Notes: generated by a model from the sequence alone, not told the origin. Positions 19,658 to 64,000 are shown, counted from the stretch's first letter. The stretch is 64,000 nucleotides of DNA from an uncultured Alphaproteobacteria bacterium (GCA_944391495.1 CALXTU010000002.1:211736-275735); one strand, 5' to 3'. Made by a program: numbers and translations.

Positions 19658-20938
19658 ATGCTGGATATCAAATTTATCTGCGATAATACCGACTGGGTTA
19701 AACAATCCCTGGGGAAAAAGGGATTTCCGGCGGCAAAGGTTGATGAGCTGATTGCCGCTTATCTGGACTTAAACAAGCTTAAAACAGCCTCGCAGGCATT
19801 GGCGGAAGAAAAAAACAAACTCAGCAACTCCATTAAATCGGCGCCGGCGGAAGAAAAAGCGGCCATTATCGCCAAAAGCAAAAGCATCGGCGAAGAGATG
19901 AAACAGCTGCAGGTGCGGCTGGACGAGGCACAGGCCAAGTTTGACGATATGATTTTGCGGATGCCGAATTACCCGAGCGACGACTGCCCGGTAGGGCCGG
20001 ATGAAAGCGGCAATGTCGTTATCCGCAAAGTGGGCGAGCCGCGCAAATTTGACTTCAAGCCGCGCGACCAGGTTGAGCTCTGCGAGCTGAACGACTGGAC
20101 CGACATGGAGCGGATTGCCAAGGTTTCCGGCGCGCGTACTTATGCGCTGAAAAATGATCTGGCACAGCTGGAACTGGCCATGCATATGATGGTTTTGGAC
20201 AAACTGCGGGCGCACGGGTTTACGGTGATTTCGGTGCCGTCGATATCCAAAGAAAAACCTCTTTACGGCCAGGGATATCTGCCGTTTTCGCGCGATGAAA
20301 TTTACTATATGCCGGCCGACGATGTTTATTTGTCCGGCACGGCGGAACTGATTTTGAATTCGCTGCACGCCGACGAGCTGTTGAGCGAAAACGACCTGCC
20401 GATTATGTATGCCGGATTTTCGCCCTGCTTCCGCCGCGAAGCCGGTGCCGCCGGCAAAGACACCAAGGGCCTTATCCGCGTGCACCAGTTTATGAAAACC
20501 GAACAGTTTATCATCTGCAAAGGAGAGTTGGAAGAAAGCGAAAAATGGCACCAAAAGCTTTTGAGCATTTCGGAAGAAGTGTTGCAGGATCTGGAGTTGC
20601 CGTATCAGGTTTTGGACATCTGCACCGGTGATATGGGCGCGCCCAAATACCGCCAATATGACCTGGAAGCCTGGCTGCCCAGCCAGAACTGCTACCGCGA
20701 AACCCACTCCTGCTCCAACATTACCGACTGGCAGGCACGGCGCACCAACCTGCGTTATCGCGAAAATGCCACCGGCAAGGTTAAATATGCCCATACTCTG
20801 AACAATACCGGCATTGCCACTCCGCGGGCTTTGGTTATGTTTATCGAAAACCACCAAAATGCCGACGGATCGGTCAATATTCCGGTTAAACTGCAGCCGT
20901 ATATGGGCGGCAAAAAGGTTATCGGCAAGGGCAAATAA
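19658..20938 (+). CDS. serS: seryl-tRNA synthetase
   Basis: The product has an N-terminal coiled-coil arm and the class II core (FRRE, GLIRVHQF). Confidence 0.9.
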   Translation: MLDIKFICDNTDWVKQSLGKKGFPAAKVDELIAAYLDLNKLKTASQALAEEKNKLSNSIKSAPAEEKAAIIAKSKSIGEEMKQLQVRLDEAQAKFDDMILRMPNYPSDDCPVGPDESGNVVIRKVGEPRKFDFKPRDQVELCELNDWTDMERIAKVSGARTYALKNDLAQLELAMHMMVLDKLRAHGFTVISVPSISKEKPLYGQGYLPFSRDEIYYMPADDVYLSGTAELILNSLHADELLSENDLPIMYAGFSPCFRREAGAAGKDTKGLIRVHQFMKTEQFIICKGELEESEKWHQKLLSISEEVLQDLELPYQVLDICTGDMGAPKYRQYDLEAWLPSQNCYRETHSCSNITDWQARRTNLRYRENATGKVKYAHTLNNTGIATPRALVMFIENHQNADGSVNIPVKLQPYMGGKKVIGKGK

Positions 20939-21010
20939 GCCTTTGACAGGAATTAAGCCCCGTTGCCGCTGCGGGGCTTGATTGTTTTTGTTTTTTGTAA
21001 GGAGCCGTTT

Positions 21011-22558
21011 ATGGAGTTCAACCGCAAAAAAATTCCGTCTTATCTGATGATCCTGACAATTATCGGCGTGGTTATCTTTTTTAACGTCATTTATTTTGAC
21101 TCCCATATTTCCGCCAACGATGCCAGCATCGTCGACTATGCCTTAAGCGACGATGACATTAACCCGGTGCGCGAAACGGCCGTTGCCGGCCTGTTTTATC
21201 CGGCGGACGTTTATCAGCTGGACAAAGACCTGGACGGTTATCTTGAACATGCAGCGGCGGATTTGAGCGGCCGGCCGCATATTATGATTGTGCCGCACGC
21301 CGGGTATCAGTATTCGGCACAGGTGGCGGCGCAGGCCTATAAACGGCTGCAGCCGTTCAAAAAACAAATCCGCCGGGTGTTTTTGCTGGGGCCGTCGCAC
21401 CGGACGGCGGTTAACGGCGTTGCGCTGCCTGCCGCCAAAGTTTTCAAGACACCGCTGGGAGCCGTGCGCACCGATACGGAAATTATGAACGAGCTGAAAA
21501 AAAATCCGCTGTTTGTCGTCAGCGCCGCCGCTCATAAAGACGAACACGCCCTGGAAGTGCAGCTGCCGTTTTTGCAAAAAACGCTTGATAAATTTAGTAT
21601 TATTCCGCTGCTTTACGGTCGGGCGGAGCCGGAAAAAATCGCCGCGGCGCTGGCGCCGTTTTTGCAAGACGATGCAACTCTTCTGGTGATTTCGGCCGAT
21701 TTATCGCATTATCTGAATTATGATGAGGCCAAAGAAGCCGATGCCCGTACGGCCGAGCAAATTAAAAATTCCGAGGCCATCAACCATCACCAATCCTGCG
21801 GCGCCACGGCCGTAAACACGGCAATGATTCTGGCGCGCAAATCCGGTTTGGTGCCGCGGCTTTTGGATATGGTCAATTCGGGAGACACTTCCGGTGACAA
21901 ACAGCGGGTCGTCGGTTACGGTGCCTGGGTTTATCAGGAAGCGGCTGAGGCCGAACCGACGGGTATTGAGCTGGAGCAAAAACATTTGCAGAATTTTGCC
22001 CGCCACAACCGGGAAGCCCTGCTTGAAATCGTGCGCTCAAGTCTGGAGGCGGCCGTGCTCAGAAATGAAATCATTCATCCGAAGCGCAGCAATTTTGATG
22101 ATGTTTTGTTTGACAAAGGCGCGTCTTTCGTCACCTTAAAAAAGAACGGCCGGCTGCGCGGCTGCATCGGTTCCGTAACGGCCAACAAGGCTATTGCCGC
22201 CGATTTGGCCGACAACGCTTATGCCGCGGCGCTGCATGATCCCCGTTTTAAACCGGTAACGCCGGAAGAACTGCCGGAGATAGACTTCAGTATTGCCCTG
22301 CTGACTGATTTTGAAGAGATGGATTTTAATTCCTATGCCGACTTATTATCTAAAATAAAGCCCGGCATTGACGGGTTGCTGCTGCGCGACGGCGAACGCG
22401 AAGGCGTCTTTCTGCCGGCGGTGTGGGAAACTCTGCCCGACAAAGAGGAATTTGTCACCCAGCTCAAAATAAAGGCCGGCTTGAGCCCGACTTACTGGGC
22501 CGACAGGGTTAAAGTTTTTCGTTTCAGAACCGTGGAGATAACAGATGACAATGATTAA
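21011..22558 (+). CDS. fusion of MEMO1-family (AmmeMemoRadiSam system protein B) and AMMECR1 (protein A) domains, with an N-terminal TM anchor
   Basis: The aaggag SD precedes the ATG at 21011. A TM helix (SYLMILTIIGVVIFF) is followed by a Memo region (IMIVPHAGYQYS...LLGPSHR) and a C-terminal AMMECR1 motif (GRLRGCIGS). Confidence 0.75.
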   Translation: MEFNRKKIPSYLMILTIIGVVIFFNVIYFDSHISANDASIVDYALSDDDINPVRETAVAGLFYPADVYQLDKDLDGYLEHAAADLSGRPHIMIVPHAGYQYSAQVAAQAYKRLQPFKKQIRRVFLLGPSHRTAVNGVALPAAKVFKTPLGAVRTDTEIMNELKKNPLFVVSAAAHKDEHALEVQLPFLQKTLDKFSIIPLLYGRAEPEKIAAALAPFLQDDATLLVISADLSHYLNYDEAKEADARTAEQIKNSEAINHHQSCGATAVNTAMILARKSGLVPRLLDMVNSGDTSGDKQRVVGYGAWVYQEAAEAEPTGIELEQKHLQNFARHNREALLEIVRSSLEAAVLRNEIIHPKRSNFDDVLFDKGASFVTLKKNGRLRGCIGSVTANKAIAADLADNAYAAALHDPRFKPVTPEELPEIDFSIALLTDFEEMDFNSYADLLSKIKPGIDGLLLRDGEREGVFLPAVWETLPDKEEFVTQLKIKAGLSPTYWADRVKVFRFRTVEITDDND

Positions 22559-24260
22559 CGGATATGAAATTGCCTTAAGCGAAGATAAGCTTGAGCACAT
22601 CATCAAAGACCAGATGATGCCGGTTGAAATGGTCGGACCGGAATTTGACGGCTACAAAAAGCTGGCCGAAGGCGACAAAAAGGCTCTGGCACATCTGACG
22701 GCGGCCGCGCGGATTATCAACGACGTGGCGCTGGAACAGGATCACCCGCTGAACCGCTTTTTCAAAAAAGGGCTGGAAGATGCCGCCGATACCGATACTC
22801 ATGCCGCCAAAGCGCTTAAACTGTTCAACTCGCTGAACGGTGTGGCCGGGCTTAACGGCATTGATCCGGAGCCTGTGGAAATTTTTGCCGGCGTTCACGG
22901 ATTCAAAGGACACAATTTTTATCCGACGGACCTTGGTGTTGACGAATTTCACACCATTCTGCAAAAAATGCTGGAACGCGGCAAAGACGACAAGGTGCGC
23001 AAAATCGTTTCGGCGCGGACGATGGTGCGGCGGGACGGCGACGAGCTTAAAGGCATTGACTATACCGTTTATTTTGCTCCCGAATTTGCCAAGATAGCCA
23101 ACGAACTTGAGGTGGCGGCACATTATTCGACCAACAAGGCGTTTAACGATTATCTCGGCTGGCAGGCGCAGGCTCTGTTGCAAAACAACGAGGATATGGA
23201 TATGCTGGCCGACAAGCACTGGGCGGTGTTGCAGGATACGCCTCTGGAATTTACGTTGTCGCACGAAAATTATGACGACGCCATGACACCGACGATTTTT
23301 GACAATCCGGCGCTGGCAGCTTTGCTGGAATCACGGAATATTTTGCCGGTGCCGAAAGATATGCTCGGCGCGCGGGTAGGCATTGTCAATAAAAAGGGCA
23401 CCGATTTAATCTTAACCTTCAAAGAACAGATGAGTAAGCTGGCCAAACTGATGCCGCTTCATGATAAATACGTGCAGAAAATAGAATCCGGCGACGAGGT
23501 CAAACAGACGATGGTCGACGTTGATCTGGTCACCCTGCAGGGTGACTACGCGCAGTGCCGCGGCGGTATCACCACCGCACAAAATCTGCCCAATGACGAC
23601 AAGCTTGCGGTCAGAACCGGCGGCGGACGGCGCAACGTTTATCACCGGCAGGTCAGAATGTCGGCAGACAAAGAACGCACCAGAAAAATGCTGGACAAAC
23701 TGCTGGACAAGGAGTTTCACCGCTGGTTTGACGACGAGGCTGAACATATTTTTGTCATCGGGCATGAAAACGGCCACTCATTGGGACCGGACGCTTCTTA
23801 TAAAACGGCTCTCGGCATTTATCAGCATACGATTGAGGAGAACAAGGCCGACGTAGTTTCCATCGCGATGATGCCGCAATATGTCACGGCCGGCGTTATT
23901 GACGAAGAAACACTCAAAAAGGTTTATGTTACCTGGGGAATGCGTCTGCTGTTGAAAGCGCGGCCGCAGCCGGAACAGCCGCACCGCGTGGGCGACCTGA
24001 TACACTTTAACTATCTTTTGAAACACGGTGCCATTGCCGTAACGCCGGAAAACAAAATACGCTTTGATTTTGCCAAGTTTCCGGAAGTTATGCAAAAGAT
24101 TTTGCAGGAAACCATTGAGGTTCAGTTGTCAAAATCACCGGCACGGGCCAAAGCCTTTATCGACGAAAACACTGCCTGGGGCGAGCTGCACGAATATATC
24201 GCCAAAACGCTGCAAAGCCTCGGCATCAAGCCTTATAAAGACATCAGGACATATTTGTAA
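22545..24260 (+). CDS. putative M49-like (dipeptidyl-peptidase III-related) zinc metallopeptidase
   Basis: The product has VIGHENGH (HExxH) and a downstream EENKAD that resembles the M49 EEcRAE second motif. Its start overlaps the upstream ORF by 14 nt. Confidence 0.4.
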   Translation: MTMINGYEIALSEDKLEHIIKDQMMPVEMVGPEFDGYKKLAEGDKKALAHLTAAARIINDVALEQDHPLNRFFKKGLEDAADTDTHAAKALKLFNSLNGVAGLNGIDPEPVEIFAGVHGFKGHNFYPTDLGVDEFHTILQKMLERGKDDKVRKIVSARTMVRRDGDELKGIDYTVYFAPEFAKIANELEVAAHYSTNKAFNDYLGWQAQALLQNNEDMDMLADKHWAVLQDTPLEFTLSHENYDDAMTPTIFDNPALAALLESRNILPVPKDMLGARVGIVNKKGTDLILTFKEQMSKLAKLMPLHDKYVQKIESGDEVKQTMVDVDLVTLQGDYAQCRGGITTAQNLPNDDKLAVRTGGGRRNVYHRQVRMSADKERTRKMLDKLLDKEFHRWFDDEAEHIFVIGHENGHSLGPDASYKTALGIYQHTIEENKADVVSIAMMPQYVTAGVIDEETLKKVYVTWGMRLLLKARPQPEQPHRVGDLIHFNYLLKHGAIAVTPENKIRFDFAKFPEVMQKILQETIEVQLSKSPARAKAFIDENTAWGELHEYIAKTLQSLGIKPYKDIRTYL

Positions 24261-24261
24261 A

Positions 24262-25644
24262 ATGTATTATCCCTTAAAAGAAATTTTTGCCATCGGCATC
24301 GGCCCGTCAAGTTCTCATACCGTCGGGCCGCTGAAGGCAGCCAAAAGGTTTGCCGACAATCTGACAAAACGCAAGCTCATCAACCGCACGGTTCGTGTTA
24401 AAGTTGACCTCTACGGCTCGCTGGCGCTGACGGGTATCGGCCACGGAACGCTTAAGGCGATTGTTTTGGGGCTGATGGGGCTGACCGCGGAAACGGTTGA
24501 TCTGGAACAGCCGTATTTTACGGCAGTCAAACGCGACGGGATTTTGCATCTGGCTCAACAGAAGGCCATTGATTTTGATGTTGAACGGGATATGGTTCTG
24601 AACAAAAAAATCTTTCTTAAAGAACATTCCAACGGCATGAAATTCACCGCCTTTGACAAAAAGGGAAAAGAAATTTTAAGCGAGGTTTATTTTTCCATCG
24701 GCGGCGGCACTGTTTTGCGGCAGGATGAATTCGGCAGCCGGGAGAAACAGGTGATTTACAATGTGCCGCACCAGTTTGACAACTGTGCCGAGCTGCAGCA
24801 GATTTGCCGAAAATACGGCCTGAGTATGGCCGAGGTGGTATTGCAAAACGAGGTTTGCCTGCAGGAAGAAACGGCGGTTCTGGCTTATCTTGAAAAAATA
24901 CGTCAGGTTATGGAAAACGCCATCGAACGCGGCATGCACAAGCAGGGTATTCTGCCAGGCGGGCTGGAAGTCAGGCGGCGGGCGCCGGAAATTTATGAAC
25001 GGCTGCAGCAAAAGTTTTTGGACAATCAGCAAGACGGTTTGGAGGTTATTGACTGGATTAATCTGTGGGGTTTTGCCGGTGCCGAGGAAAACGCCGCCGG
25101 CGGTCGCGTGGTTACGGCCCCGACAATGGGATCGGCAGGAATTATGCCTTCGGTTTTGCGCTATTTTGAGCGCTTTGCTTCGCATAATTCGCCGTTTACG
25201 GTCAATGACGGCATTATCAAATTTCTGACCACCGCGGCGGCAATTTGTTCATTATACCGCACCAACGCCTCTATTTCCGGTGCCGAGGTCGGCTGTCAGG
25301 GAGAGGTCGGTGTTGCCTGCTCAATGGCTGCGGCCGGTCTGGCGGCGGCGATGGGCGGTTCCAACGAACAGGTTGAACAGGCGGCGGAAATTGCCATGGA
25401 ACATAATCTGGGGCTGACCTGTGATCCGGTCAACGGGCTGGTGCAGGTGCCGTGTATCGAACGCAACGCCATGGGCGCGGTCAAAGCGGTTAATTCCGCC
25501 AGGCTGGCCATGCGCGGCGACGGTAAACACGTCGTGTCGCTGGACAGCGTTATCAAAACCATGTATGCCACCGGCAAGGATATGAGCAACCGCTACAAGG
25601 AAACCTCTCTGGGCGGTTTGGCGGTGAATATCACAAATTGTTAG
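24262..25644 (+). CDS. sdaA: L-serine dehydratase, single-chain iron-sulfur type
   Basis: The N-terminus [23 protein letters not shown] is typical of SdaA. The ATG lies immediately after the upstream stop. Confidence 0.85.
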
Positions 25645-25730: not shown

Positions 25731-26105
25731 ATGTTGACAAAACTTTTTAAAGGCGAATTGTCGCTCGGCGCAACTTTTTGGAAGTTTGGCATTCTGGGGC
25801 TGATTATTCTGCATTTTGCCCTGAGAATGTTTGCCTCATTGTTGGCCACACACCTTAAAGGGCGGACGATTTACGACTTTTTTATGCATCATTTTCATAT
25901 TGTCTATACCTCTAAGCTGAGTATTTTGTGGACATTGTGTTATATATCAACCTTTGCGGTTTTGGTTTTTTATTCTTACAAAATCATTATCGCCGTTTGG
26001 CGCTGCGCCGCGAATTATGATAAAAGCATTTGGCTGGCACAACTGGCGCGTATCGGCATTTTGCTGGCGGTGTTTTTGGTTTGGAGCCGGATATTGATGA
26101 GGTAA
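25731..26105 (+). CDS. hypothetical small membrane protein (4 TM)
   Basis: The ORF has low GC and a hydrophobic profile. Confidence 0.4.
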   Translation: MLTKLFKGELSLGATFWKFGILGLIILHFALRMFASLLATHLKGRTIYDFFMHHFHIVYTSKLSILWTLCYISTFAVLVFYSYKIIIAVWRCAANYDKSIWLAQLARIGILLAVFLVWSRILMR

Positions 26106-26108
26106 AAA

Positions 26109-26261
26109 ATGAAAAAACTGTTGATTGCGGTATTCATCATATTTTTAAGCGGTTGTATGCAAGTCGGCGAATTTTCGCCCGAAAGGCATGCCCAGCACGA
26201 GCTCGGCAGACCTGACTGTGAGGTAACACCGGAAAAATGTATTCACGGTGTGCCGTGGTGA
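26109..26261 (+). CDS. 50-aa lipoprotein (lipobox LSGC)
   Basis: The product reads MKKLLIAVFIIFLSGCMQVG...PDCEVTPEKCIHGVPW. A degraded copy of its 3' half lies at 30043-30135. Confidence 0.5.
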   Translation: MKKLLIAVFIIFLSGCMQVGEFSPERHAQHELGRPDCEVTPEKCIHGVPW

Positions 26262-26317
26262 TATAAATAAAAAACCGGAGCCACTGAGGGGCTCCGGGAA
26301 AAAGGTTTTTAATATTC

Positions 26318-29221
26318 TTAAAGTATACTGCCGACGAAGTAATTGACGGAGCCATTATAGTTTATGCTCCATACTCCGTTCTCGGCAATACCGGTGGCTT
26401 TCAAAGGTTCCGGGAAAGGTTCACCATTAATGGTTCCTTCCATAACACCAAGCCTCAGAGCCAAACCTCCTGCAAGATCATAGTAATCTATCCGATAATC
26501 AAGATCCGCATTGCTGCTTGTCTCATAATACATGGTGCCGATAACCCATGAAGCTCCCGTCCATACCCATGCAATCGAACGACCGGAAGACAAAATGCTC
26601 TGTCCCTCGGCTGCTGTCAGCTGGGTGGTGGTGAAACTTGTTTCATTCACACCGCGGGAATATACAACGTAACTTCCGTCGTTATTTCTCGCTAAGATGT
26701 GAAGGTCCGTACTCATTAATGAACGGCCCTGGTATGCGTCGGTAATCCACATACCCATAATTTCACCATTTATAATCTCTGCCTCGATATAATTTACCGG
26801 TACCGTGGCAGAGATTTCTTCTGTTTCATGCTCGAAAGTAATCGTTGCACTTCCTTCACCAAAGGTGATGGTGGCAACGTTTACTTCACATACCGGAGCC
26901 TCACTGCGGTAGTCATTTCCATCAAATACAATGGCTGAAACCTCTCTTGAGGAGAAGTTAACAGTTACATTATATCCTTCAACAACAGCGGTACCTGCGT
27001 TGAATTGGAATGACTGCCCCTTAACGGAAGCCGGTATGCTCGGCATACTATACACGAACCGGTTGGTCCATGTATAGTCTGCAGAAGCCTTTGAAGATGT
27101 TCCGTCAGACATGGTCGTCGTCTGAACGGCCTCATTGTCGCATACCACCGAAATGGTGTTGTTAGCGACAACCGCATTGCTGCGGAAGGCTACGTGACGG
27201 TAGTCACGGGCTACGTCCACCACCGTTACAGGCTCCTCATAAGGAACCACGGTGGCAGGGATAGTTACCTCAGCATAATCCTCGCTGTTGCTGTCGTAAA
27301 AACGAACAACAGCTTCAGAGGCTGATGTAAAGCTGATCGTACGGGCTGCGGCTTCGCAAGGAGTGATCTCGCTTGCGTAGTCTTTATCCTGGTACATTAC
27401 ACTTCCCTCAACCTCAGCAGACAAATGCTGAGCGGAGATTCTACTTCCGCACACGGTGACTTCACCGTTGACGAAGTCGTAGGTATTACCCACAACTGCG
27501 TCTTCCGCCGTTGCCTGTATCTCCGGTATGGAGGCAGAGAAACGGTTTCTAACGATGTAGTCCACGCTTTCCTCGTTCTGACGTGAGCTGTCGCTCATCA
27601 CCTGTACGAAATCCGCAACATTGTTGCAGAATACGTTGATGATGTTGTTTGACAGCTGCGCCTCACGCTGGAAAGCGATGTGGCGGTGTGCCCAGTCTAC
27701 GTGGTCCATCACCACCTTTTCGGTTTCGATGATGGACACAGACAATGTCAGCTCCGCATAATCTGAGGCCTTTTCGTCATAAAAGACGACGGTTGCCTCA
27801 GATGTTGAGTTGAAAGTAATGGTCTTTGGCTCAACCTCACAAGGAATAATTTCCCCGGTATAGTCTTTGCCGCGGTATTCTACTTTCCCCTCAATGGCAG
27901 AACTGATTGCCCTGAATGTCACCTGCTGCTGATTTACCACATTGGCCACGCCGTTGGCAAAGACAAAGGTCTTGCCGACAACCTCATTAAGGTTATCAAC
28001 CGTAATTACCGGAATATTAGCGGTAAACCGGTTAAGAACGACATAGTCAACCGTTTCGGCGTTGTGCTCGCTGCTGTCGGTGTAGATTTCAACGAAATCT
28101 GCAGCATTGTCGCAGAAAACATTGACGACACCGTCTACCAGCGTTGCCTGACGCTGAAACGCAATGTGGCGGTATGACCATTCTGTCCGGTCGTAAACCG
28201 GAACCGGCGTGCCGTCTATGGAAATTGTCAGTTCGGCATAGTCCGCCTCGTCCTCATCATAGAAGACGATGGTGGCGGCATTTTTGTTGAAGCTGATGGT
28301 TCTGGCCGCAACCGTGCAAGGGGTTATTTCCTCCGCATAGTTTTTGTCCTGATAAACCACCTCATCTTCAATACTTGCCGAAAGCCATTTGCAGGACAGC
28401 TCTTTGCCGGCCAGCTCGACAATACCGTCAATAAATTCAACGGTTGTGCCGTCGAGTTCGGCAATCTCTGTCTCACTTAGCGTCGGAGCGCTGAGTGATA
28501 AGAGGTTGTTGACGATATAGCCGGCTTTCTTCACGTTTTGCCTGGAGCCGTCAGACATCACCTCAGCGAATTCTGCAACATTATTGCAAAGTACGCTGAC
28601 AACGTTGTCTTTCAGTCCGGCATTACGCTGGAAAGCGATGTGGCGATATGCCCAGTCTATGTGGTCGACTGTCGGAGATACATACCCCTCCTCAACCACA
28701 AAGACCTGAGTTGCACCGGCGAGCTCTAACTCTCCGTAAGACAAGATATAATCTGTCTCGGAGAGTTCATAGAAAGCAGGCTCGCTGCTGCTTTCTACCA
28801 CATTGTGGTGGCCTAACACTGTCAGCTCAACCCCACAAGGTATCTCATAAGAGACGCCCTCGTAGGTGAACGGCATTGTCAGCCCTTCAACTGTGACTTC
28901 ATTGTTGATGTCATAGTTGTAGGCAAAAGTCAGAGTGTCCTCTGCGACTTTGCGAAGAGCTTCAGCAGCCTCAATACCTTCAGTTCCCGCAACACGAATT
29001 GAATCCTGAGCTTTAAGCCCAAAAGGACTATCCGCATAACCAAGGCTCAGGGAATCCGTTGAAAAAGCCTCTACAAATTCTGAATTGTCCGTCGGTAGGA
29101 AGTATCCTGGTATCCGACTTCTCTGAGGTAAGTTTTCCTCAATTTCCGTCAATGCACTTGTGCAAGACGCTGAGGTCATGACAGCTATCACGACCAACAA
29201 AATGTTGATTAAATTTTTCAT
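26318..29221 (-). CDS. large surface lipoprotein with four tandem repeats of about 165 aa
   Basis: The 967-aa product has a lipoprotein signal peptide (MKNLINILLVVIAVMTSASC). Repeat units begin W(A/S)(Y/H)RHIAFQR...NV(F/L)C(N/D)N and each contains conserved Cys. The repeats are also visible at nucleotide level over roughly 26950-28740. Confidence 0.8.
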   Translation of the reverse strand: MKNLINILLVVIAVMTSASCTSALTEIEENLPQRSRIPGYFLPTDNSEFVEAFSTDSLSLGYADSPFGLKAQDSIRVAGTEGIEAAEALRKVAEDTLTFAYNYDINNEVTVEGLTMPFTYEGVSYEIPCGVELTVLGHHNVVESSSEPAFYELSETDYILSYGELELAGATQVFVVEEGYVSPTVDHIDWAYRHIAFQRNAGLKDNVVSVLCNNVAEFAEVMSDGSRQNVKKAGYIVNNLLSLSAPTLSETEIAELDGTTVEFIDGIVELAGKELSCKWLSASIEDEVVYQDKNYAEEITPCTVAARTISFNKNAATIVFYDEDEADYAELTISIDGTPVPVYDRTEWSYRHIAFQRQATLVDGVVNVFCDNAADFVEIYTDSSEHNAETVDYVVLNRFTANIPVITVDNLNEVVGKTFVFANGVANVVNQQQVTFRAISSAIEGKVEYRGKDYTGEIIPCEVEPKTITFNSTSEATVVFYDEKASDYAELTLSVSIIETEKVVMDHVDWAHRHIAFQREAQLSNNIINVFCNNVADFVQVMSDSSRQNEESVDYIVRNRFSASIPEIQATAEDAVVGNTYDFVNGEVTVCGSRISAQHLSAEVEGSVMYQDKDYASEITPCEAAARTISFTSASEAVVRFYDSNSEDYAEVTIPATVVPYEEPVTVVDVARDYRHVAFRSNAVVANNTISVVCDNEAVQTTTMSDGTSSKASADYTWTNRFVYSMPSIPASVKGQSFQFNAGTAVVEGYNVTVNFSSREVSAIVFDGNDYRSEAPVCEVNVATITFGEGSATITFEHETEEISATVPVNYIEAEIINGEIMGMWITDAYQGRSLMSTDLHILARNNDGSYVVYSRGVNETSFTTTQLTAAEGQSILSSGRSIAWVWTGASWVIGTMYYETSSNADLDYRIDYYDLAGGLALRLGVMEGTINGEPFPEPLKATGIAENGVWSINYNGSVNYFVGSIL

Positions 29222-45698: not shown

Positions 45699-46397
45699 TT
45701 AGCGGCGGATTTCAAAACCTTCAAAGTTGGCCTGCAGATAAGCGAGCAGTTCTTTGTCGGCAAACGGTTTTTCGCAATCGTCTTCCGTGGTGGTTTTGTC
45801 GCTGTCCACCGGCCGGTATTTTTGCAAAAAGTATTTTTTTACGCCTTTATTTTTTAACGCTTCGGCTATCTGCCATAAATCCGCCGAGCTGATAAAACGC
45901 GGATCACAGGTCGTGCGGCACTCAAAGTCTGTTCCGGAAGCCAAAAGCAGATCCAGACTCTGCAACACCCGCGCCAAGTGGTCAACGCCGATAATTTCTT
46001 TATAGCGCGCGGCGTCAAACGGCGCTTTGATATCCAGTCCCACCCAGTCGACCAGGGGCAGTATTTTGGCCAAATGTTCCGGCCGGTAACCGCCGGTATG
46101 CAAACCGATTTTGTAGCCCAGAGCTTTGACCTCACGCATCTTGTCGGCCAGGCAATCCTGCACCAGAGGTTCACCACCGGAAAAAGTTACGGCGTCAAGC
46201 TTGCCGACCCGGGTTTTCAGGAAGTCAAAAAACAACTCCCAAGAAAAATCCGTTTCCCTGACAATCGGACGGATAGAAGCATTGTGACAAAAAGGACAAG
46301 ACCACGGGCAGCCCTGCATAAAGACAACAGCCGACAAAACCCCGGGAAAGTCAACGGCGCTGAATTTCTCAACGCCGCCGACTACAATTTCAGACAT
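45699..46397 (-). CDS. nrdG: anaerobic ribonucleotide reductase activating protein (radical SAM), long NrdG type
   Basis: The product has CPWSCPFCHN and is the last gene of the nrdD operon. The track ORF start at 46454 overlaps the upstream ORF; the Met at 46397 is preferred. Confidence 0.65.
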   Translation of the reverse strand: MSEIVVGGVEKFSAVDFPGVLSAVVFMQGCPWSCPFCHNASIRPIVRETDFSWELFFDFLKTRVGKLDAVTFSGGEPLVQDCLADKMREVKALGYKIGLHTGGYRPEHLAKILPLVDWVGLDIKAPFDAARYKEIIGVDHLARVLQSLDLLLASGTDFECRTTCDPRFISSADLWQIAEALKNKGVKKYFLQKYRPVDSDKTTTEDDCEKPFADKELLAYLQANFEGFEIRR

Positions 46398-46411
46398 TTT
46401 TTGTTTACGGA

Positions 46412-46630
46412 TTATTCCGCCGCGATGTCCATCGCACCACATTCGCAATGGCAAGCGCAGCCGTCAATCGCCTTAAGTTCAGAAAAACATACACGAGAGC
46501 GGTATTCCGATTTTTTGCCGACATTAAATTCGGAGTACGGACGCAGATAGCCCATAACGCGGGTCCATACTTCGCAAGGCTGTCTTTCTTCATCTGCAAG
46601 TTTGATATCTTCAAAATTAACAGTATTCAT
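46412..46630 (-). CDS. stand-alone glycyl-radical loop subunit of class III RNR (split NrdD C-terminus) with an extra CACHCEC cluster
   Basis: The product has its own RBS (ggag). Its segment VWTRVMGYLRPYSEFNVGKKSEYRSRV aligns with the NrdD C-terminus VVRRVCGYLGSPDARPFNAGKQEEVKRRV. Confidence 0.6.
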   Translation of the reverse strand: MNTVNFEDIKLADEERQPCEVWTRVMGYLRPYSEFNVGKKSEYRSRVCFSELKAIDGCACHCECGAMDIAAE

Positions 46631-60155: not shown

Positions 60156-60232
<77 letters not shown>

Positions 60233-60539
60233 AAGAAATTCAAGGCTTTCGAGAAATCGAGAGCCTTTTGTTTTATCCAAAATGGGACACTGCTGGGACA
60301 TTAAAGATAAAAAATACAAATAATCAGAAACTAATAACAACACAGAAACCCTCTAAAATAGACTTTTTTAGACTTGTATGTCCCTTTAGTGTCCCACAGA
60401 GTGATTAGCGCATATATTTATCCCGTTAATTCAATATAATATATATCAGGAAACATCAGCTTGTAAAACTTGTTGACATATATTCTGACTTCTTTTAGAC
60501 TCTTTTTATCTATTTTAATTTATTAAAAAGGTATTGGTT

Positions 60540-61601
60540 ATGGCGTCTATTGAAAAGAGAACAGCTAAAGATGGAACAATTTCTTATCGGGTAAAAATCA
60601 GAATAAAAGGATTTCCAGCGCAAACCGCCACATTTACAAAACTTTCATTGGCTAAAGATTGGGTTGCTCGGACTGAAACAAAAATAAAAGATGGAAAATA
60701 TTTAAGTGAAATTCAAGCAAGAAAGCATTTTGTTTGGGAAATAATAGAGCGCTATAAGAATACGGTTCTTATTCATAAGAAGGCTATAGTTAAAGATTGG
60801 ACTTCTCAATTAAATTGGTGGAATGACAAAATTGGTCAATATGCTTTGGCAGATGTTACTCCAGCGCTTATTTCTCAAATGAGAGATATACTTTCACAAG
60901 AAAATGGAGCAAAGGGCAAACCTCGGAGTAATGCAACAGTAAACAGATATCTTACAACAATGCAGTGTGTGTTTTCGGTTGCAGTAAAAGAGTGGGAATT
61001 GCTTGATGTGAATCCATTTTTTAGAGTGAAAAAATTACAAGAGCCAAGAGGTCGTGTTCGTTATTTGAGCAAAGAAGAAAGAGAAAGTTTGTTGGCTGAA
61101 TGCCAGAAAGCATCTAATCCATATTTATATCCAGCTGTAATTGTTGCTTTGTCAACTGGAGCAAGAAAAATGGAAGTTATGAGCTTAAGGTGGGAGGATG
61201 TTGATTTGGCTAATGAAAGGGCTATCTTGCAAGATACCAAAAATGGAGAGAGAAGAACAATTAATCTATTGGGTGTCGTTAATCAGTTGATGCAAGATTT
61301 ATATAATAAACGTCGAAAATCTGATATTTATGTTTTTCCAAGTCATGATGGGAAAAAGCCATTTGATATAACAAGAAGTTGGAAAGCTGCAGTTAAAAGA
61401 GCCGGAATAAAAGATTTTCGCTTCCATGATCTGAGGCATACCACCGCTAGTTATCTTGCAATGCAAGGAAAATCTATGGGTGAAGTTGCTGAAGTTTTAG
61501 GTCATAAAACTTTGCAAATGGTCAAAAGATATGCTCACTTGTCTGATGAACACAAAAAATCATTAACAGCAGATATGAATAAAGCAATTTTTGGAGAGTA
61601 G
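60540..61601 (+). CDS. int: tyrosine-type site-specific integrase
   Basis: The C-terminal catalytic motifs are FHDLRHT...HKTLQMVKRYAHL. A TTG start at 60534 is an alternative. Confidence 0.85.
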   Translation: MASIEKRTAKDGTISYRVKIRIKGFPAQTATFTKLSLAKDWVARTETKIKDGKYLSEIQARKHFVWEIIERYKNTVLIHKKAIVKDWTSQLNWWNDKIGQYALADVTPALISQMRDILSQENGAKGKPRSNATVNRYLTTMQCVFSVAVKEWELLDVNPFFRVKKLQEPRGRVRYLSKEERESLLAECQKASNPYLYPAVIVALSTGARKMEVMSLRWEDVDLANERAILQDTKNGERRTINLLGVVNQLMQDLYNKRRKSDIYVFPSHDGKKPFDITRSWKAAVKRAGIKDFRFHDLRHTTASYLAMQGKSMGEVAEVLGHKTLQMVKRYAHLSDEHKKSLTADMNKAIFGE

Positions 61602-61602
61602 T

Positions 61603-62655
61603 ATGAGATCTGATGAATATACAGAATTAAAAGAATGTACGTTGAAAAAAGCTCCAGATTACTTACCAGAAAAATTAAAAGATAGAATTAATGAAATTAT
61701 CGAATCTATACGATATGTTCAAACAAATCCTTATGTATGCTATCGCAGTCTAAAATATCCTAATTTTCCGCCGGTTGTGTATGAAAAGGATTCGGATGAT
61801 TGGTATAGATATTTGAAATATCTTAATAGATTACAAAGATGTTTTTGTTTGATTAGTAATGAGAAAGTTGCTGAGATATGGAAAACATTTGAAAAATATG
61901 CAAAATCTCATTTTGATTATTCTAGTCTTTATACTTGGATTACAAATAATTTTTGCCGCCAAATTAATTATGAACAAGATATACATCAATGGGGAATGTC
62001 TAGTGAAATACAGTCCAGCATTGATGCGCATATATCCATAAAGAGATCTCCAGAAGATATTTTAAAAAAGGCACAAGAACTATATAATATATTCAATAGT
62101 AATATTTCTCTAATAGCTCCAGATGGGGCTGATTGCTTTGAAGATTTAGATAAAAATAATCCTGAAGATCAAAAATTTTTAGATGAAAATGGTAATCCTC
62201 CATATAAAATCAATTGGGATTTACTTATCACTGATGATGAATATTTCGAATTTATTGACATTTTTAAGAAAATTCTAGAAAAACTTCATAATAGAGTAAA
62301 GCTCAAAGATTCTGAGAGATATAAAACAACTGTTTTTCTGCATAATCCTATATCAAGAAAAAAAGGTATTGATGGCGCTCAAGAAATTTATTTTGCACGT
62401 GAGTTATATATTAAATTTATGCAAGAATTTAATAGACCTTTGTATGGCACAATTTCATTAATATTGGAACACTTATTCGGTAGTACGTACACGGAAAATG
62501 AGGTCATAAAGTTTTGCTCCTCTGTTAGAAGGCGTTATAAAGGACTTGAAAAAGAAATAAAGTGCCAAGGATATGAACCCAAATTAGAAGATTCATTTAT
62601 TTTATCAAAAATAGCTAATAATCTAAAAAGTGAAGATTCAAAGAAGAAAAAATAG
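61603..62655 (+). CDS. hypothetical 351-aa island protein
   Basis: A ggagag RBS precedes the ATG, which abuts the integrase stop. No recognisable motifs are present. Confidence 0.5.
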   Translation: MRSDEYTELKECTLKKAPDYLPEKLKDRINEIIESIRYVQTNPYVCYRSLKYPNFPPVVYEKDSDDWYRYLKYLNRLQRCFCLISNEKVAEIWKTFEKYAKSHFDYSSLYTWITNNFCRQINYEQDIHQWGMSSEIQSSIDAHISIKRSPEDILKKAQELYNIFNSNISLIAPDGADCFEDLDKNNPEDQKFLDENGNPPYKINWDLLITDDEYFEFIDIFKKILEKLHNRVKLKDSERYKTTVFLHNPISRKKGIDGAQEIYFARELYIKFMQEFNRPLYGTISLILEHLFGSTYTENEVIKFCSSVRRRYKGLEKEIKCQGYEPKLEDSFILSKIANNLKSEDSKKKK

Positions 62656-62754
62656 CTTGAAACTCCATTATATTATAATCTGAAATTTATAAAAATACTC
62701 CATAGCAAGTGCAAAAAGCTTGCAATTAGTAATAATAAATATGGAGTATTTAAA

Positions 62755-62973
62755 ATGATTGAAAATAATGTTCCTTCGCTTTTTACAATTAATGGATTTT
62801 GTGAAAAGCATTCTTTTTTAACCCCTTCAGCGTTGAGAAATAAAATCTTTTATTCGTCTCAAAATAGGATGGATGAATTTAAGGTTACATTGAAGTTGGG
62901 CAAACGAGTTTATATCAATGAATTAAACTTTTTTAATTGGTTGAACGCCATGAACGGAGGTGCTCATGACTAA
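62755..62973 (+). CDS. small putative DNA-binding protein (excisionase/AlpA-like position)
   Basis: The 72-aa product lies between the integrase and the Rep-like gene. Confidence 0.35.
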   Translation: MIENNVPSLFTINGFCEKHSFLTPSALRNKIFYSSQNRMDEFKVTLKLGKRVYINELNFFNWLNAMNGGAHD

Positions 62974-63166
62974 TACTCCGTTAAAAGCAATTAAAGCCAG
63001 ATGTCTTGATTGTTGTGGTGATGATCATCCTCGTAAATGTGTGTGCATTAATTGTCCGTTATATCCATTTAGATTGGGAAAAAATACGCTACTTCCTAAA
63101 AGGCAAATATCAGATAGCCATCGGGCATCTTTAATGAAAAATATCCAAAAAAGGTGGGAGAAATAG
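62960..63166 (+). CDS. small Cys-rich zinc-finger protein
   Basis: The product has the Cys cluster CLDCCGDDHPRKCVCINC. Confidence 0.4.
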   Translation: MLMTNTPLKAIKARCLDCCGDDHPRKCVCINCPLYPFRLGKNTLLPKRQISDSHRASLMKNIQKRWEK

Positions 63167-63168
63167 TA

Positions 63169-63852
63169 ATGGAAAAAAAGGAAAATCGTAAACTATTAAC
63201 TAATTATGTTAAAAGTCAGTGTGGAACAGGTTTTTTATCAATTAAGCATTGCTCTAAGCTGAGTAACTCTTTAGTTAATAATATAATATATAATTTAAAT
63301 AATATATATACATCCAAATGGAAAGAGCTTAATAAAATTGATAAAGTAAAACTATTTTTTGAACATATAGTTGATAGTTCTTGGAGTGCTATAACGCTTC
63401 GTTTCTCAGAAGATTTGGTAGCCAAGTGCATTTATAACACCAAAATAACAGATTTTATTCGTAGACGCCTCAACGAGAATTTTAAGAATCGGCTAGGATA
63501 TGTTCCGGAATACCTGTTTAGCCTAGAGTTTGATAATAAAATGTTTCATATTCACGGTGTGATTAAACCGGATAATAATTTTGATCTTATTAAAAAGATT
63601 CTTAAAACAACGGCTTTTTCTAAAAAGAATCGGGGTTTTCATTATCCTGAGCAATTTAAGCTTAGATGTAGAATGATTTATAGTCCTAAAGGTTGGGGGC
63701 GTTATATTTTGAAAAAAAGCTATCACCCAAAGTTTGATATTTATATTTGCAATCCCATAACACGGCAAATCGCAAAAAAATATTGTGAACTTCTTAGCTC
63801 AAAAAACATTCATAACGCTATCAGGCTTACTAATTGTTCTAAAGTAGATTAA
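63169..63852 (+). CDS. HUH-motif replication initiator/relaxase-like protein
   Basis: The product has FHIHGVI (the HUH motif) followed by the candidate catalytic tyrosines in YILKKSY. The RBS is aggtggga. Confidence 0.45.
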   Translation: MEKKENRKLLTNYVKSQCGTGFLSIKHCSKLSNSLVNNIIYNLNNIYTSKWKELNKIDKVKLFFEHIVDSSWSAITLRFSEDLVAKCIYNTKITDFIRRRLNENFKNRLGYVPEYLFSLEFDNKMFHIHGVIKPDNNFDLIKKILKTTAFSKKNRGFHYPEQFKLRCRMIYSPKGWGRYILKKSYHPKFDIYICNPITRQIAKKYCELLSSKNIHNAIRLTNCSKVD

Positions 63853-63904
63853 AGTAGATTGAAAATACCTTTGAACTAGTACTACAAAAATTAGGAGATA
63901 TAAC

Positions 63905-64000
63905 ATGATTTATGGATATATTCGCGTCTCGACTGACAAACAAGACTGTGAAAATCAAAAATTGGGTATCGAACAAAAGGCAAAATCTCTGAAGCTCAAA
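63905..64000 (+). CDS. serine recombinase (resolvase/invertase), N-terminal part
   Basis: The product begins MIYGYIRVSTDKQD, which includes the catalytic Ser motif. Confidence 0.7.
   Translation, partial: MIYGYIRVSTDKQDCENQKLGIEQKAKSLKLK

Follow-up and report, generated by a model that had tools for sequence, protein, structure and literature searches.

A predicted membrane-anchored Memo–AMMECR1 fusion whose gene overlaps that of an M49-type peptidase in one clade of uncultured Alphaproteobacteria from gut and rumen

Introduction

Memo and AMMECR1, which have been conserved all the way from archaea to humans, have links to human disease. Eukaryotes are not known to have a radical SAM enzyme dedicated to their MEMO1 and AMMECR1. 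Burroughs et al. 2019 (JBC) reportedly dealt with the contexts in which the two domains occur. Structures of MEMO1 are available (PDB 3bcz, 7kq8 and 7m8h). In the literature on AmmeMemoRadiSam, AMMECR1 and MEMO1 we found no paper giving a biochemical function, and the main lead to the function of the two domains is genomic context, which has pointed so far to a radical SAM partner.

The closest described systems are the soluble AmmeMemoRadiSam fusions, which have the same Memo-then-AMMECR1 order and the same length as the protein presented here, at 36–45% identity. The best 80 of at least 598 species-genome matches are all fusions of proteins A and B, hosted by Gamma-, Beta- and Alphaproteobacteria and by other phyla, and 71 of these 80 are soluble. 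A radical SAM gene (TIGR04337) is adjacent in 56 of the 71 soluble-fusion loci (neighbours scoring 646–665 bits, cut-off 220) and is absent from the fetched flank, on contigs some of which are short or incomplete, in the other 15. The fusion therefore does not accompany radical SAM loss. An earlier reading of this DNA from the sequence alone (the sequence-only reading) had counted the A/B fusion among the signs of an unusual variant, which does not hold among these 80 matches.

The second protein of the locus is to be compared with the short bacterial DPP III, such as Caldithrix abyssi CaDPP III (6eom) and Corallococcus CoDPP III (5zum). The short HEXXH-type bacterial DPP III are active dipeptidyl-peptidases (PMC5805324), and dipeptidyl-peptidase activity has been measured in this subgroup (PMC9820243).

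Here, we describe a locus of an uncultured gut alphaproteobacterium, analysed within a 64-kb stretch of DNA (the window) and compared with its relatives. The reading that we favour, with a probability of roughly 55%, is that the locus encodes a lineage-specific, membrane-tethered derivative of Memo–AMMECR1, locally unlinked from radical SAM, its translation coupled to that of an M49 peptidase.

Organisation of the locus

The features of the locus are collected in Table 1. The fusion ORF ends at 22558 on the + strand and has two candidate starts, TTG 20963 and ATG 21011. The fusion starts at ATG 21011. The TTG 20963 start, which would give 531 aa, was rejected because the frame from TTG would cross the hairpin at 20951–20983 and has no Shine–Dalgarno sequence. 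The same hairpin sets SerRS apart from the operon. The sequence-only reading had described, within 20963–24260, a 516-aa fusion with an N-terminal TM helix and a 14-nt overlap with the next gene; the single polypeptide stands, its length is corrected to 515 aa, the helix agrees with hydropathy and with the AlphaFold model (see below), and the overlap is confirmed by direct reading of the sequence. PGAP names the fusion only 'AmmeMemoRadiSam system protein B' and the peptidase 'hypothetical protein'.

Table 1. Coordinates of the features of the locus, counted from the first nucleotide of the window.
Feature	Position	Strand	Details
Intrinsic-terminator-like hairpin with T-run	20951..20983	+	after SerRS stop at 20938
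Shine–Dalgarno AAGGAG	20999..21004	+	6 nt 5′ of ATG 21011, read directly from sequence
Memo–AMMECR1 fusion gene, predicted membrane-anchored	21011..22558	+	515 aa; AmmeMemoRadiSam B and A domains in a single polypeptide
Predicted single N-terminal TM helix SYLMILTIIGVVIFFNVIYF	21038..21097	+	codons 10–29; hydrophobicity, AlphaFold
Memo domain	21176..21925	+	residues 56–305; Pfam E 2e-53
AMMECR1 domain	22025..22534	+	residues 339–508; Pfam E 4e-45
Peptidase Shine–Dalgarno GGAG	22534..22537	+	in C-terminal V-E-I codons of fusion, 7 nt 5′ of ATG 22545
Overlap of fusion 3′ end with peptidase 5′ end	22545..22558	+	14 nt; ATG 22545, TAA 22556–22558
M49-type (DPP III fold) zinc metallopeptidase gene	22545..24260	+	571 aa; short bacterial HEXXH subgroup
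HENGH zinc-binding/catalytic motif	23763..23777	+	residues 407–411; alignment of homologues
EENKAD second zinc-ligand motif	23835..23852	+	residues 431–436; alignment of homologues
L-serine dehydratase (SDH_beta + SDH_alpha)	24262..25644	+	460 aa; ATG 1 nt past peptidase stop
Small multi-TM protein	25731..26105	+	124 aa; no Pfam family
Predicted lipoprotein	26109..26261	+	50 aa; lipobox LSGC
GC-rich hairpin with T-run	26275..26297	.	between convergent genes

The gene arrangement shows the fusion at the head of a predicted operon that continues with the peptidase, the L-serine dehydratase, the small multi-TM protein and the small lipoprotein, the last three being usual members, and that likely ends at the hairpin between the convergent genes. 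The dehydratase is present in 34 and absent from 40 of 80 metagenome loci, hence it is a facultative member. The multi-TM protein lies 3′ of the peptidase in most clade loci, with or without the dehydratase in between, also where the upstream gene has decayed, and the lipoprotein is found downstream in 50 of the 69 clade loci with enough DNA.

Domains and membrane anchor of the fusion protein

Both domain assignments of the sequence-only reading, which had called for a comparison with HMMs, are upheld by Pfam and by the NCBIfam models: the fusion scores 246.1 bits against TIGR04336 (protein B; cut-off 26, residues 54–307) and 184.7 bits against TIGR04335 (protein A; cut-off 99, residues 336–508). 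The AlphaFold model of the fusion reaches a pTM of 0.51 and its inter-domain geometry is unreliable, hence no composite active site was inferred.

The Memo metal-site residues H96 (PHAGY), H130 (GPSH), D230/H233 (DLSH) and C263 (HQSCG) and the AMMECR1 motif LRGCIG (C385) are invariant among 27 clade sequences, as are about 110 further columns. Human MEMO1 matches the Memo domain with E 9e-29, and H96, H130 and D230/H233 align to its PHAGY, GPSH and D-x-x-H in a local alignment that stops short of C263. We take C263 to be the counterpart of MEMO1 Cys244. The Memo metal site is complete in sequence, and metal binding is predicted. Invariance of the metal ligands and of the AMMECR1 Cys among sequences of 47–79% identity indicates that the catalytic sites are under strong purifying selection.

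The putative TM helix (residues 10–29) has a mean Kyte–Doolittle value of 2.4 in a 19-residue window, and AlphaFold models a helix at residues 5–31. The segment is preceded by RKK, followed by an acidic linker, and contains an Asn (N25) that is invariant across the clade. Among the fusions compared, it is limited to the clade, save for an archaeal fusion (L085) and possibly one from Bdellovibrionota (L076); the N-termini of the other fusions extend only about 8 residues ahead of the Memo core. The comparison of loci shows, as far as predicted topology goes, that the ancestral fusion was soluble and normally adjoined a TIGR04337 gene, and that the clade gained a single-pass N-terminal anchor.

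Counts of K+R in the flanks of the helix were higher on the N-terminal side in 22 of 33 intact sequences, equal in 9 and lower in 2, the bias thus being neutral or reversed in 11, with means (n=33) of 3.27 for the N flank against 1.70 for the C flank; among decayed sequences, the N flank was the richer in 17 of 23. This distribution makes it more likely that the anchored domains lie on the outer face of the inner membrane (N-in/C-out). Since the peptidase has no signal peptide, a periplasmic location of the anchored domains would mean no contact between the two proteins.

The M49-type peptidase

Searches of Pfam and NCBIfam at E<=0.01 bring up no family for the 571-aa protein, Peptidase_M49 included, and in Pfam at E<=10 it gives only a chance-level match to M48. 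The Peptidase_M49 search suggested by the sequence-only reading was thus negative, and the protein was identified instead through sequence and fold searches of known structures. By phmmer against PDB, it matches Caldithrix DPP III 6eom (E 1.3e-24) and 5zum (E 7e-11), and its AlphaFold model (pLDDT 93) is matched by Foldseek to 6eom (E 7e-28, TM 0.78/0.85) as well as to the DPP III of B. thetaiotaomicron, human and yeast. The protein is accordingly modelled with the two-lobe DPP III fold that it has in common with CaDPP III and CoDPP III. Across 26 homologues, residues H407, E408, H411, E431, E432, K434 and A435 do not vary, and at least 90% of the sequences keep D436; the roles of the two zinc motifs in M49 enzymes are as described in PMC5805324. 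The two structural matches, the fold and these motifs bear out the earlier M49-like call.

The clade peptidase and the short bacterial DPP III are alike in length (about 550–570 aa), in HEXXH plus EEXKAD and in the NLPND region. Nevertheless, they share just 20–24% identity, and the clade peptidase differs in mostly having a gene for the TM-anchored Memo–AMMECR1 protein, or its remnant, on the 5′ side and the multi-TM protein on the 3′ side. Dipeptidyl-peptidase activity of the clade peptidase is predicted by analogy with the characterised enzymes. With 602 clusters (50% identity, E<=1e-3), the peptidase family is a small one. Sister peptidases (P0244–P0263) have a length of ~630 aa.

Conservation of the gene pair

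In the tree of the Memo+AMMECR1 core, the TM-anchored, peptidase-linked forms group as a single monophyletic clade, whose members are uncultured Alphaproteobacteria from gut and rumen. The tree is an outgroup-rooted NJ tree, calculated with the TM region left out and without bootstrap, in which the clade (45 sequences) has a stem branch of 0.12. Loci of the clade include those on CAKQRQ010000001 (L008), CALXVR010000011 (L009), DBFWPL010000009 (L013) and CALXTV010000004 (L014). A midpoint root inside the clade was rejected as a long-branch effect, as outgroup rooting gives monophyly.

The sequence-only reading had asked whether the fusion–peptidase pair is conserved in relatives, and within the clade it is. 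The peptidase lies directly 3′ of the fusion in all 13 clade loci found by genome and contig look-ups, and among 80 metagenome loci, 48 have an intact fusion directly 5′ of the peptidase and most of the others have a decayed derivative there; the metagenome scan used a 9-sequence peptidase alignment, and the loci returned were all in-clade, at 55% identity or more. Outside the clade the adjacency is absent: the nearest outgroup peptidase (P0242, 47% identity), whose context is that of one locus (L167), has an unrelated gene upstream. Because all peptidase-linked loci are in one clade, the adjacency is best seen as one evolutionary event that was then maintained, and not as convergence. The junction is constant despite variable flanks: SerRS is adjacent in 9 clade loci and one gene away in 25, another 24 have no SerRS within 3 kb, the dehydratase comes and goes, and an isoamylase gene lies upstream in some loci.

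Radical SAM partner

The sole ORF with a CxxxCxxC motif in the window (45702–46463, − strand) is NrdG2 (197 bits) with no match to TIGR04337, and tblastn of the window with three TIGR04337 proteins found NrdG only (E 0.03). Motif scan, HMM and tblastn thus agree with the sequence-only reading that no radical SAM gene lies near the fusion and that NrdG stands alone in the window. Furthermore, the 1.08 Mb that make up 96 clade loci held none near the fusion, the DNA examined reaching at most 10 kb on either side in relatives and comprising the 64 kb of the window in this genome.

The strongest competitor of the favoured reading, though we consider it unlikely, is an ordinary AmmeMemoRadiSam system, with its radical SAM gene elsewhere in the genome, a peptidase adjacency that is non-functional synteny and a helix that serves localisation at the inner face of the membrane. 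The intact catalytic motifs and the scores far over cut-off with both TIGRFAM models would suit such a system, and the window amounts to only about 3% of a genome. For 15 of the 71 soluble fusions, too, the fetched flank shows no radical SAM gene next to the fusion, the archaeal fusion L085 combines a TM-like N-terminus with a radical SAM gene still in the locus, and the peptidase association is confined to the clade. However, none of the 96 clade loci had a TIGR04337 gene alongside, whereas 56 of the 71 soluble-fusion loci did. The overlap and junction stay constant where both flanks are rearranged, the repeated decay of Memo and AMMECR1 motifs within the clade fits loss of the three-part function, and the charge bias speaks for a domain outside the cytoplasm, where the radical SAM enzyme could not reach it. 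In the clade, the overlapping downstream gene is that of an M49 peptidase instead of the radical SAM enzyme. The opposite evolutionary outcome is seen in a Rhodospirillaceae MAG (L056), where B and A domains in the order found here form a triple fusion, radical SAM–Memo–AMMECR1, radical SAM having been fused in, not lost. What is peculiar to the clade, and what remains of the 'unusual variant' of the sequence-only reading, is the combination of a TM anchor, peptidase coupling and no adjacent radical SAM gene.

Decay of the fusion in sister lineages

Repeated loss of the catalytic motifs among clade members is a further difference from the soluble fusions. By tblastn, 27 loci seemed to have no upstream fusion, which was rejected when inspection of ORFs and an HMM from A1 revealed decayed TM-anchored derivatives in those of the loci that were examined. 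Decayed forms of 350–431 aa have lost PHAGY, GPSH, DLSH, HxxCG and LRGCIG, and in shrunken forms of 177–183 aa most of the fusion protein is gone. The Pfam scores fall stepwise through L089, L097, L134 and L139. The decayed genes still have the anchor, with a TM helix and juxtamembrane motif that the family HMM still matches, and the 14-nt overlap is retained in nearly all clade loci, these included. Because the peptidase persists beside catalytically dead or shortened partners, it is independent of Memo/AMMECR1 chemistry.

This pattern raises a second alternative, to which we assign a low probability, that catalysis is no longer the main role of the anchored protein, which serves as a membrane partner or adaptor, perhaps with the multi-TM protein, or as an upstream ORF that drives translation of the peptidase, the intact motifs in the window being a state not yet decayed. 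Sister lineages that lose the motifs or most of the protein while keeping the anchor, the juxtamembrane motif and the overlap are what it would predict, and the Shine–Dalgarno sequence of the peptidase lies inside the last codons of the upstream gene. The fusion also evolves faster than the peptidase, with identities to L001 and L008 of 66–68% versus 74–79%. Against this stand the metal ligands and the AMMECR1 Cys, none of which varies in the 27 sequences of the window's subgroup, and, if the topology is N-in/C-out, a tail of just about 9 residues that could meet the cytoplasmic peptidase. An artefact of frameshift, mis-assembly or chance ORFs is hardly conceivable: more than 120 protein clusters, drawn from many assemblies, have the ~516-aa architecture, the identical junction recurs in at least 57 independent loci, and the structure models of both proteins are confident.

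Proposed function and significance

Under the favoured reading of a tethered, peptidase-coupled derivative, the copy of the fusion in the window would still be an enzyme, since no Memo metal ligand is missing and the AMMECR1 Cys motif is intact. It would be held at the inner membrane, with its domains more likely outside, and would work with no step by a radical SAM enzyme, as MEMO1 and AMMECR1 of eukaryotes must. In neither this locus nor eukaryotes are the two domains known to have a radical SAM partner of their own. The eukaryotic proteins are separate, whereas the clade protein is bacterial, fused, predicted to be anchored and in an operon with a peptidase. Translational coupling may ensure that fusion and peptidase are produced in a fixed proportion. 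The peptidase, a putative cytosolic dipeptidyl-peptidase, would trim oligopeptides, and the serine dehydratase would turn the serine so released into pyruvate. That the pairing persists may hint that the anchored protein has a peptide-related substrate or acts as a membrane partner. That the clade module is a periplasm-facing, radical-SAM-independent metalloenzyme in a pathway functionally tied to the DPP III-type peptidase is a speculative proposal with a small chance of being right.

The clade represents a natural experiment, in which an apparently anchored pair of domains has intact active-site residues, no adjacent radical SAM gene and an overlapping start that ties it to an M49 peptidase, while in sister lineages the catalytic residues decay. 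If the link to the peptidase is not functional, the finding is a refinement of annotation. A functional link would suggest that the substrate is peptide-related and that the locus is a bacterial parallel to eukaryotes, which have no radical SAM partner. Should the periplasmic metalloenzyme be real, it would provide the first bacterial context for a peptide or envelope substrate of Memo/AMMECR1, and a prokaryotic model for the radical-SAM-free MEMO1 and AMMECR1 of eukaryotes.

The Fusion Gene and the Overlapping Peptidase Gene

The first gene of the overlapping pair was listed with a TTG start at 20963. This start was rejected in favour of ATG 21011, since a hairpin lies upstream and a strong AAGGAG precedes the ATG. 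The resulting protein of 515 aa contains complete Memo (residues 56–305, E 2e-53) and AMMECR1 (residues 339–508, E 4e-45) domains in Pfam and passes the NCBIfam cut-offs for AmmeMemoRadiSam protein B (TIGR04336, 246 bits, cut-off 26) and protein A (TIGR04335, 185 bits, cut-off 99), as the sequence-only reading had assigned them. The proposed N-terminal transmembrane (TM) helix was also recovered: residues 10–29 are hydrophobic, and the AlphaFold model has a helix at 5–31 followed by a disordered linker at 44–61. Around 115 columns are invariant among 27 anchored sequences (47–79% identity), including the Memo metal-site residues H96, H130, D230, H233 and C263, as well as the AMMECR1 motif L-R-G-C385-I-G. 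H96, H130, D230 and H233 align with the corresponding motifs of human MEMO1. The window's copy thus appears to be under purifying selection as a predicted enzyme.

The positions of the fusion stop and the downstream ATG (see table) give the 14-nt overlap claimed earlier, and the dipeptidyl peptidase III (DPP III)-like, M49 call on the 571-aa downstream product proved sound. This product lacks a signal peptide and matches no Pfam or NCBIfam family. However, phmmer searches of PDB sequences found DPP III of Caldithrix abyssi (6eom, E 1.3e-24, residues 21–547) and Corallococcus (5zum, E 7e-11). Its confident AlphaFold model (pLDDT 93, pTM 0.91, 26 homologues as input) matched 6eom (E 7e-28, TM 0.78/0.85) and 5zum in Foldseek, followed by the B. 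thetaiotaomicron, human and yeast DPP III. The product carries the motifs H407-E-N-G-H411 and E431-E-N-K-A-D436, in which H407, E408, H411, E431, E432, K434 and A435 are invariant in homologues down to 31% identity, and D436 is kept in at least 90% of them. These predicted zinc motifs are those of a bacterial M49 subgroup that is short (~550 aa) and has the pentapeptide HEXXH; dipeptidyl-peptidase activity has been demonstrated for it (PMC5805324; PMC9820243). By fold and motifs, though not by any curated Pfam model, the product is a divergent member of this subgroup. Its family is small: at 50% identity and E ≤ 1e-3, 1.84 billion representatives yielded 602 clusters.

The same model (m549a2538bba6, 22545-24260) also matches the Fe2+/pterin-dependent PolE (9j30, 9j2e and others) in Foldseek at E about 1e-7 and TM 0.4–0.59, which suggests a common fold for M49 peptidases and the PolE oxygenase family. 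Among distant peptidase homologues, P0267 and P0273 are TM-anchored and have lost HEXXH, and P0334 (872 aa) has a signal peptide and an N-terminal extension of ~360 aa. The ~630-aa proteins of a sister group bear a low-complexity N-terminal extension of ~60 aa.

Coordinates of features in the window and, where a locus is named, in other loci
Feature	Position	Strand	Remark
SerRS gene end	20938		
GC-rich hairpin and T-run	20951-20983		3' of SerRS gene
AAGGAG	20999-21004		6 nt 5' of ATG 21011
Fusion gene (flagged overlapping pair, ORF listing)	start ATG 21011	+	
Fusion stop TAA	22556-22558	+	
GGAG	22534-22537		5' of peptidase gene, within V-E-I codons of fusion
Peptidase gene (flagged overlapping pair, ORF listing)	start ATG 22545	+	
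124-aa multi-TM protein	25731-26105		N-terminal G-x-x-S-L-x-x-x-F-W-K-F-G
50-aa lipoprotein	26109-26261		lipobox LSGC
967-aa predicted lipoprotein	26318-29221	-	signal MKNLINILLVVIAVMTSASC
Sole CxxxCxxC ORF	45702-46463	-	NrdG2
tRNA-Met (CAT)	60156-60232		
Phage-type tyrosine integrase ORF	60534-61601		Pfam E 1.4e-31
ORFs next after integrase ORF	61591-62655; 63154-63852		no Pfam family
tRNA-Met and integrase region	60156-64000		GC drops to 0.30-0.34, about 0.48 elsewhere
Radical SAM–B–A fusion, L056	8618-11359		914 aa
Decayed form, L134	4737-6005		
Decayed form, L139	4788-6014		
Decayed form, L137	5481-6014		
Decayed form, L155	5469-6005		
Decayed forms, L150, L157, L160, L164			

Distribution and Ancestry of the Locus

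Fusion of proteins A and B is ordinary. Both domains occur together in more than 120 protein clusters of ~516 aa, and when one genome was scanned for each species, at least 598 stretches matched; the top 80 all span the two domains. Nine of these 80 (L007-L015) come from MAGs of gut or rumen Alphaproteobacteria (46–66% identity) and align from residue ~1. The other 71 (36–45%) align only from residue ~50 on and belong to Gamma-, Beta- and other Alphaproteobacteria, Myxococcota, Planctomycetota, Gastranaerophilales and one archaeon. The ORFs of these 71 soluble fusions start ~8 residues ahead of the conserved R-x-P-A-V-A-G-x-F-Y-P, and a hydrophobic N-terminus was not found among them, save in the archaeal L085 and perhaps the Bdellovibrionota L076. 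The earlier view of an unusual variant applies not to the fusion itself but to its anchor, its coupling to the peptidase and the missing radical SAM neighbour, taken together.

The pairing seen in the window is conserved in its relatives. In tblastn with the window's proteins, each of the 13 clade loci having downstream DNA has the peptidase gene directly 3' of the fusion, and the peptidase was not found in any of the 71 soluble-fusion loci. A survey from the peptidase side, covering 80 metagenome loci from human gut and rumen (55–80% identity), found an intact fusion directly 5' in 48, and the 14-nt overlap is preserved nearly everywhere among the clade loci inspected. The wider neighbourhood varies: SerRS borders the anchored gene in 9 loci, is separated from it by a single gene in 25 and is absent within 3 kb in 24, and some loci have an isoamylase upstream. 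L-serine dehydratase (SDH) follows the peptidase in 34 of the 80 metagenome loci and is lacking in 40. The 124-aa multi-TM protein (most clade loci) and the 50-aa lipoprotein (50 of 69 with sufficient DNA), neither assigned to a Pfam family, accompany the peptidase across the clade whether or not SDH intervenes. Upstream of P0242, the closest peptidase outside the clade (47% identity), lies an unrelated gene at a distance of 250 nt. A neighbour-joining tree of the Memo and AMMECR1 core, with the anchor region left out, grouped all 45 distinct clade sequences (stem 0.12); the anchor, the peptidase link and the missing adjacent radical SAM gene thus seem to trace to one ancestor.

L011 (JAISVX010000002.1), a contig labelled as a ‘Lactobacillaceae bacterium’ MAG, bears the alphaproteobacterial fusion–peptidase–SDH operon, probably through a binning or labelling error.

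The 967-aa predicted lipoprotein, with about four internal repeats of ~150 aa (…HIDWAYRHIAFQR…), matches nothing in Pfam. Its gene is missing from the syntenic L001, L002 and L004, where FBP aldolase lies directly 3' of the 50-aa gene, which makes it a lineage-specific insertion. The region with tRNA-Met, the integrase ORF and lowered GC looks like an integrative element that has inserted at a tRNA gene and runs past the window end.

The Radical SAM Partner and Membrane Topology

The sequence-only reading named an NrdG-type activase as the window's sole radical SAM protein, with no partner near the fusion. Indeed, the only CxxxCxxC ORF is NrdG2 (197 bits, cut-off 131) and has no TIGR04337 match; TIGR04337 tblastn on the window gave nothing but weak NrdG similarity. 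In most soluble-fusion loci, a CNLACKFC ORF adjoins the fusion, divergent upstream or overlapping downstream, and the three tested are TIGR04337 (646–665 bits, cut-off 220). TIGR04337 proteins matched 56 of the 71 soluble-fusion loci and 0 of 96 clade loci (1.08 Mb, partly redundant) in tblastn. The locus has proteins A and B of the AmmeMemoRadiSam system but no adjacent radical SAM gene, and we file it as derived from the system, not as a complete member. Eukaryotes likewise have MEMO1 and AMMECR1 but are not known to have a TIGR04337-type partner. In L056, a Rhodospirillaceae MAG (JAWXBK010000049), one ORF fuses radical SAM, B and A (TIGR04337 627, TIGR04336 240, TIGR04335 177 bits).

One rival reading is that the clade has the usual three-part system: its radical SAM gene would lie at another place in the genome, and the synteny would merely be inherited. 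We consider this unlikely, and the charges around the helix bear on it. Counting K+R within 15 residues either side, the N flank exceeds the C flank in 22 of 33 intact proteins, equals it in 9 and falls below it in 2 (means 3.27 vs 1.70); for 23 decayed forms, described below, these numbers are 17, 2 and 4 (4.57 vs 1.70). The window's fusion has 3 vs 0, and the linker after its helix is acidic. The bias varies across the clade and is not uniform, but under the positive-inside rule it favours an N-in/C-out topology. The Memo–AMMECR1 domains would then be extracytoplasmic, beyond the reach of a radical SAM enzyme and also of the signal-less peptidase.

Decayed Upstream Genes in Sister Lineages

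Among the 80 metagenome loci, 27 were first read as devoid of the fusion; that reading was rejected, as those inspected show a TM-anchored gene overlapping the peptidase start. The encoded proteins have 350–431 aa, or just 177–183 aa. An HMM from the alignment of anchored fusions (A1) matches the 350–422 aa forms (6 of 8 upstream ORFs, E 1e-12 to 1e-17) over the N-terminal anchor and juxtamembrane region plus the C-terminal part of AMMECR1, with no significant match for the 177–178 aa forms tested (L137, L155). The decayed forms lack PHAGY, GPSH, DLSH, HxxCG and LRGCIG. Pfam scores fall stepwise from L089 (Memo 96, AMMECR1 66 bits) through L097 (41 and 128 bits) and L134 (no Memo; AMMECR1 18.6 bits, below cut-off) to L139 and L137, with neither domain. 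The peptidases beside L089 and L097 share 74% and 64% identity with that of the window, and those beside shorter forms 55–61%; decay therefore occurred at least three times. The decayed forms listed in the table retain the TM helix, its K/R-rich N-terminal flank and the 14-nt overlap; those of 350–431 aa keep the juxtamembrane motif as well. Such decayed genes could encode pseudoenzymes or be leader-like ORFs.

These sister forms lend some weight to the idea that the window's protein is itself drifting away from enzymatic function, to become a membrane partner or simply an upstream ORF driving peptidase translation. The catalytic residues are, however, invariant in its subgroup, and we regard such drift as improbable. 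That the fusion or the overlap is an artefact is refuted by many independent loci and hardly conceivable.

Concluding Remarks

The analysis establishes the anatomy, distribution and coupling signals of the locus. It is best explained as a clade-specific derivative of a fused A/B protein that is anchored in the membrane and has lost its linkage to a radical SAM gene. Translational coupling would join the fusion to the short M49 peptidase of HEXXH type, and the genes for serine dehydratase, the 124-aa multi-TM protein and the 50-aa lipoprotein usually belong to the operon too. Jointly, with a probability of roughly 0.55, the window's protein would be an active, radical-SAM-independent metalloenzyme that faces the periplasm and is functionally paired with the peptidase. 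For Memo and AMMECR1, Burroughs et al. (2019) reportedly proposed contexts pointing to the modification of nucleotide bases or isoprenoids.

The literature searched holds no description of an anchor, peptidase coupling, missing adjacent radical SAM gene and graded sister decay together. The A/B fusion is ordinary, but this combination is apparently new. What these uncultured gut Alphaproteobacteria carry is a genuine variant, specific to their clade and conserved within it, of a known system whose function is obscure.
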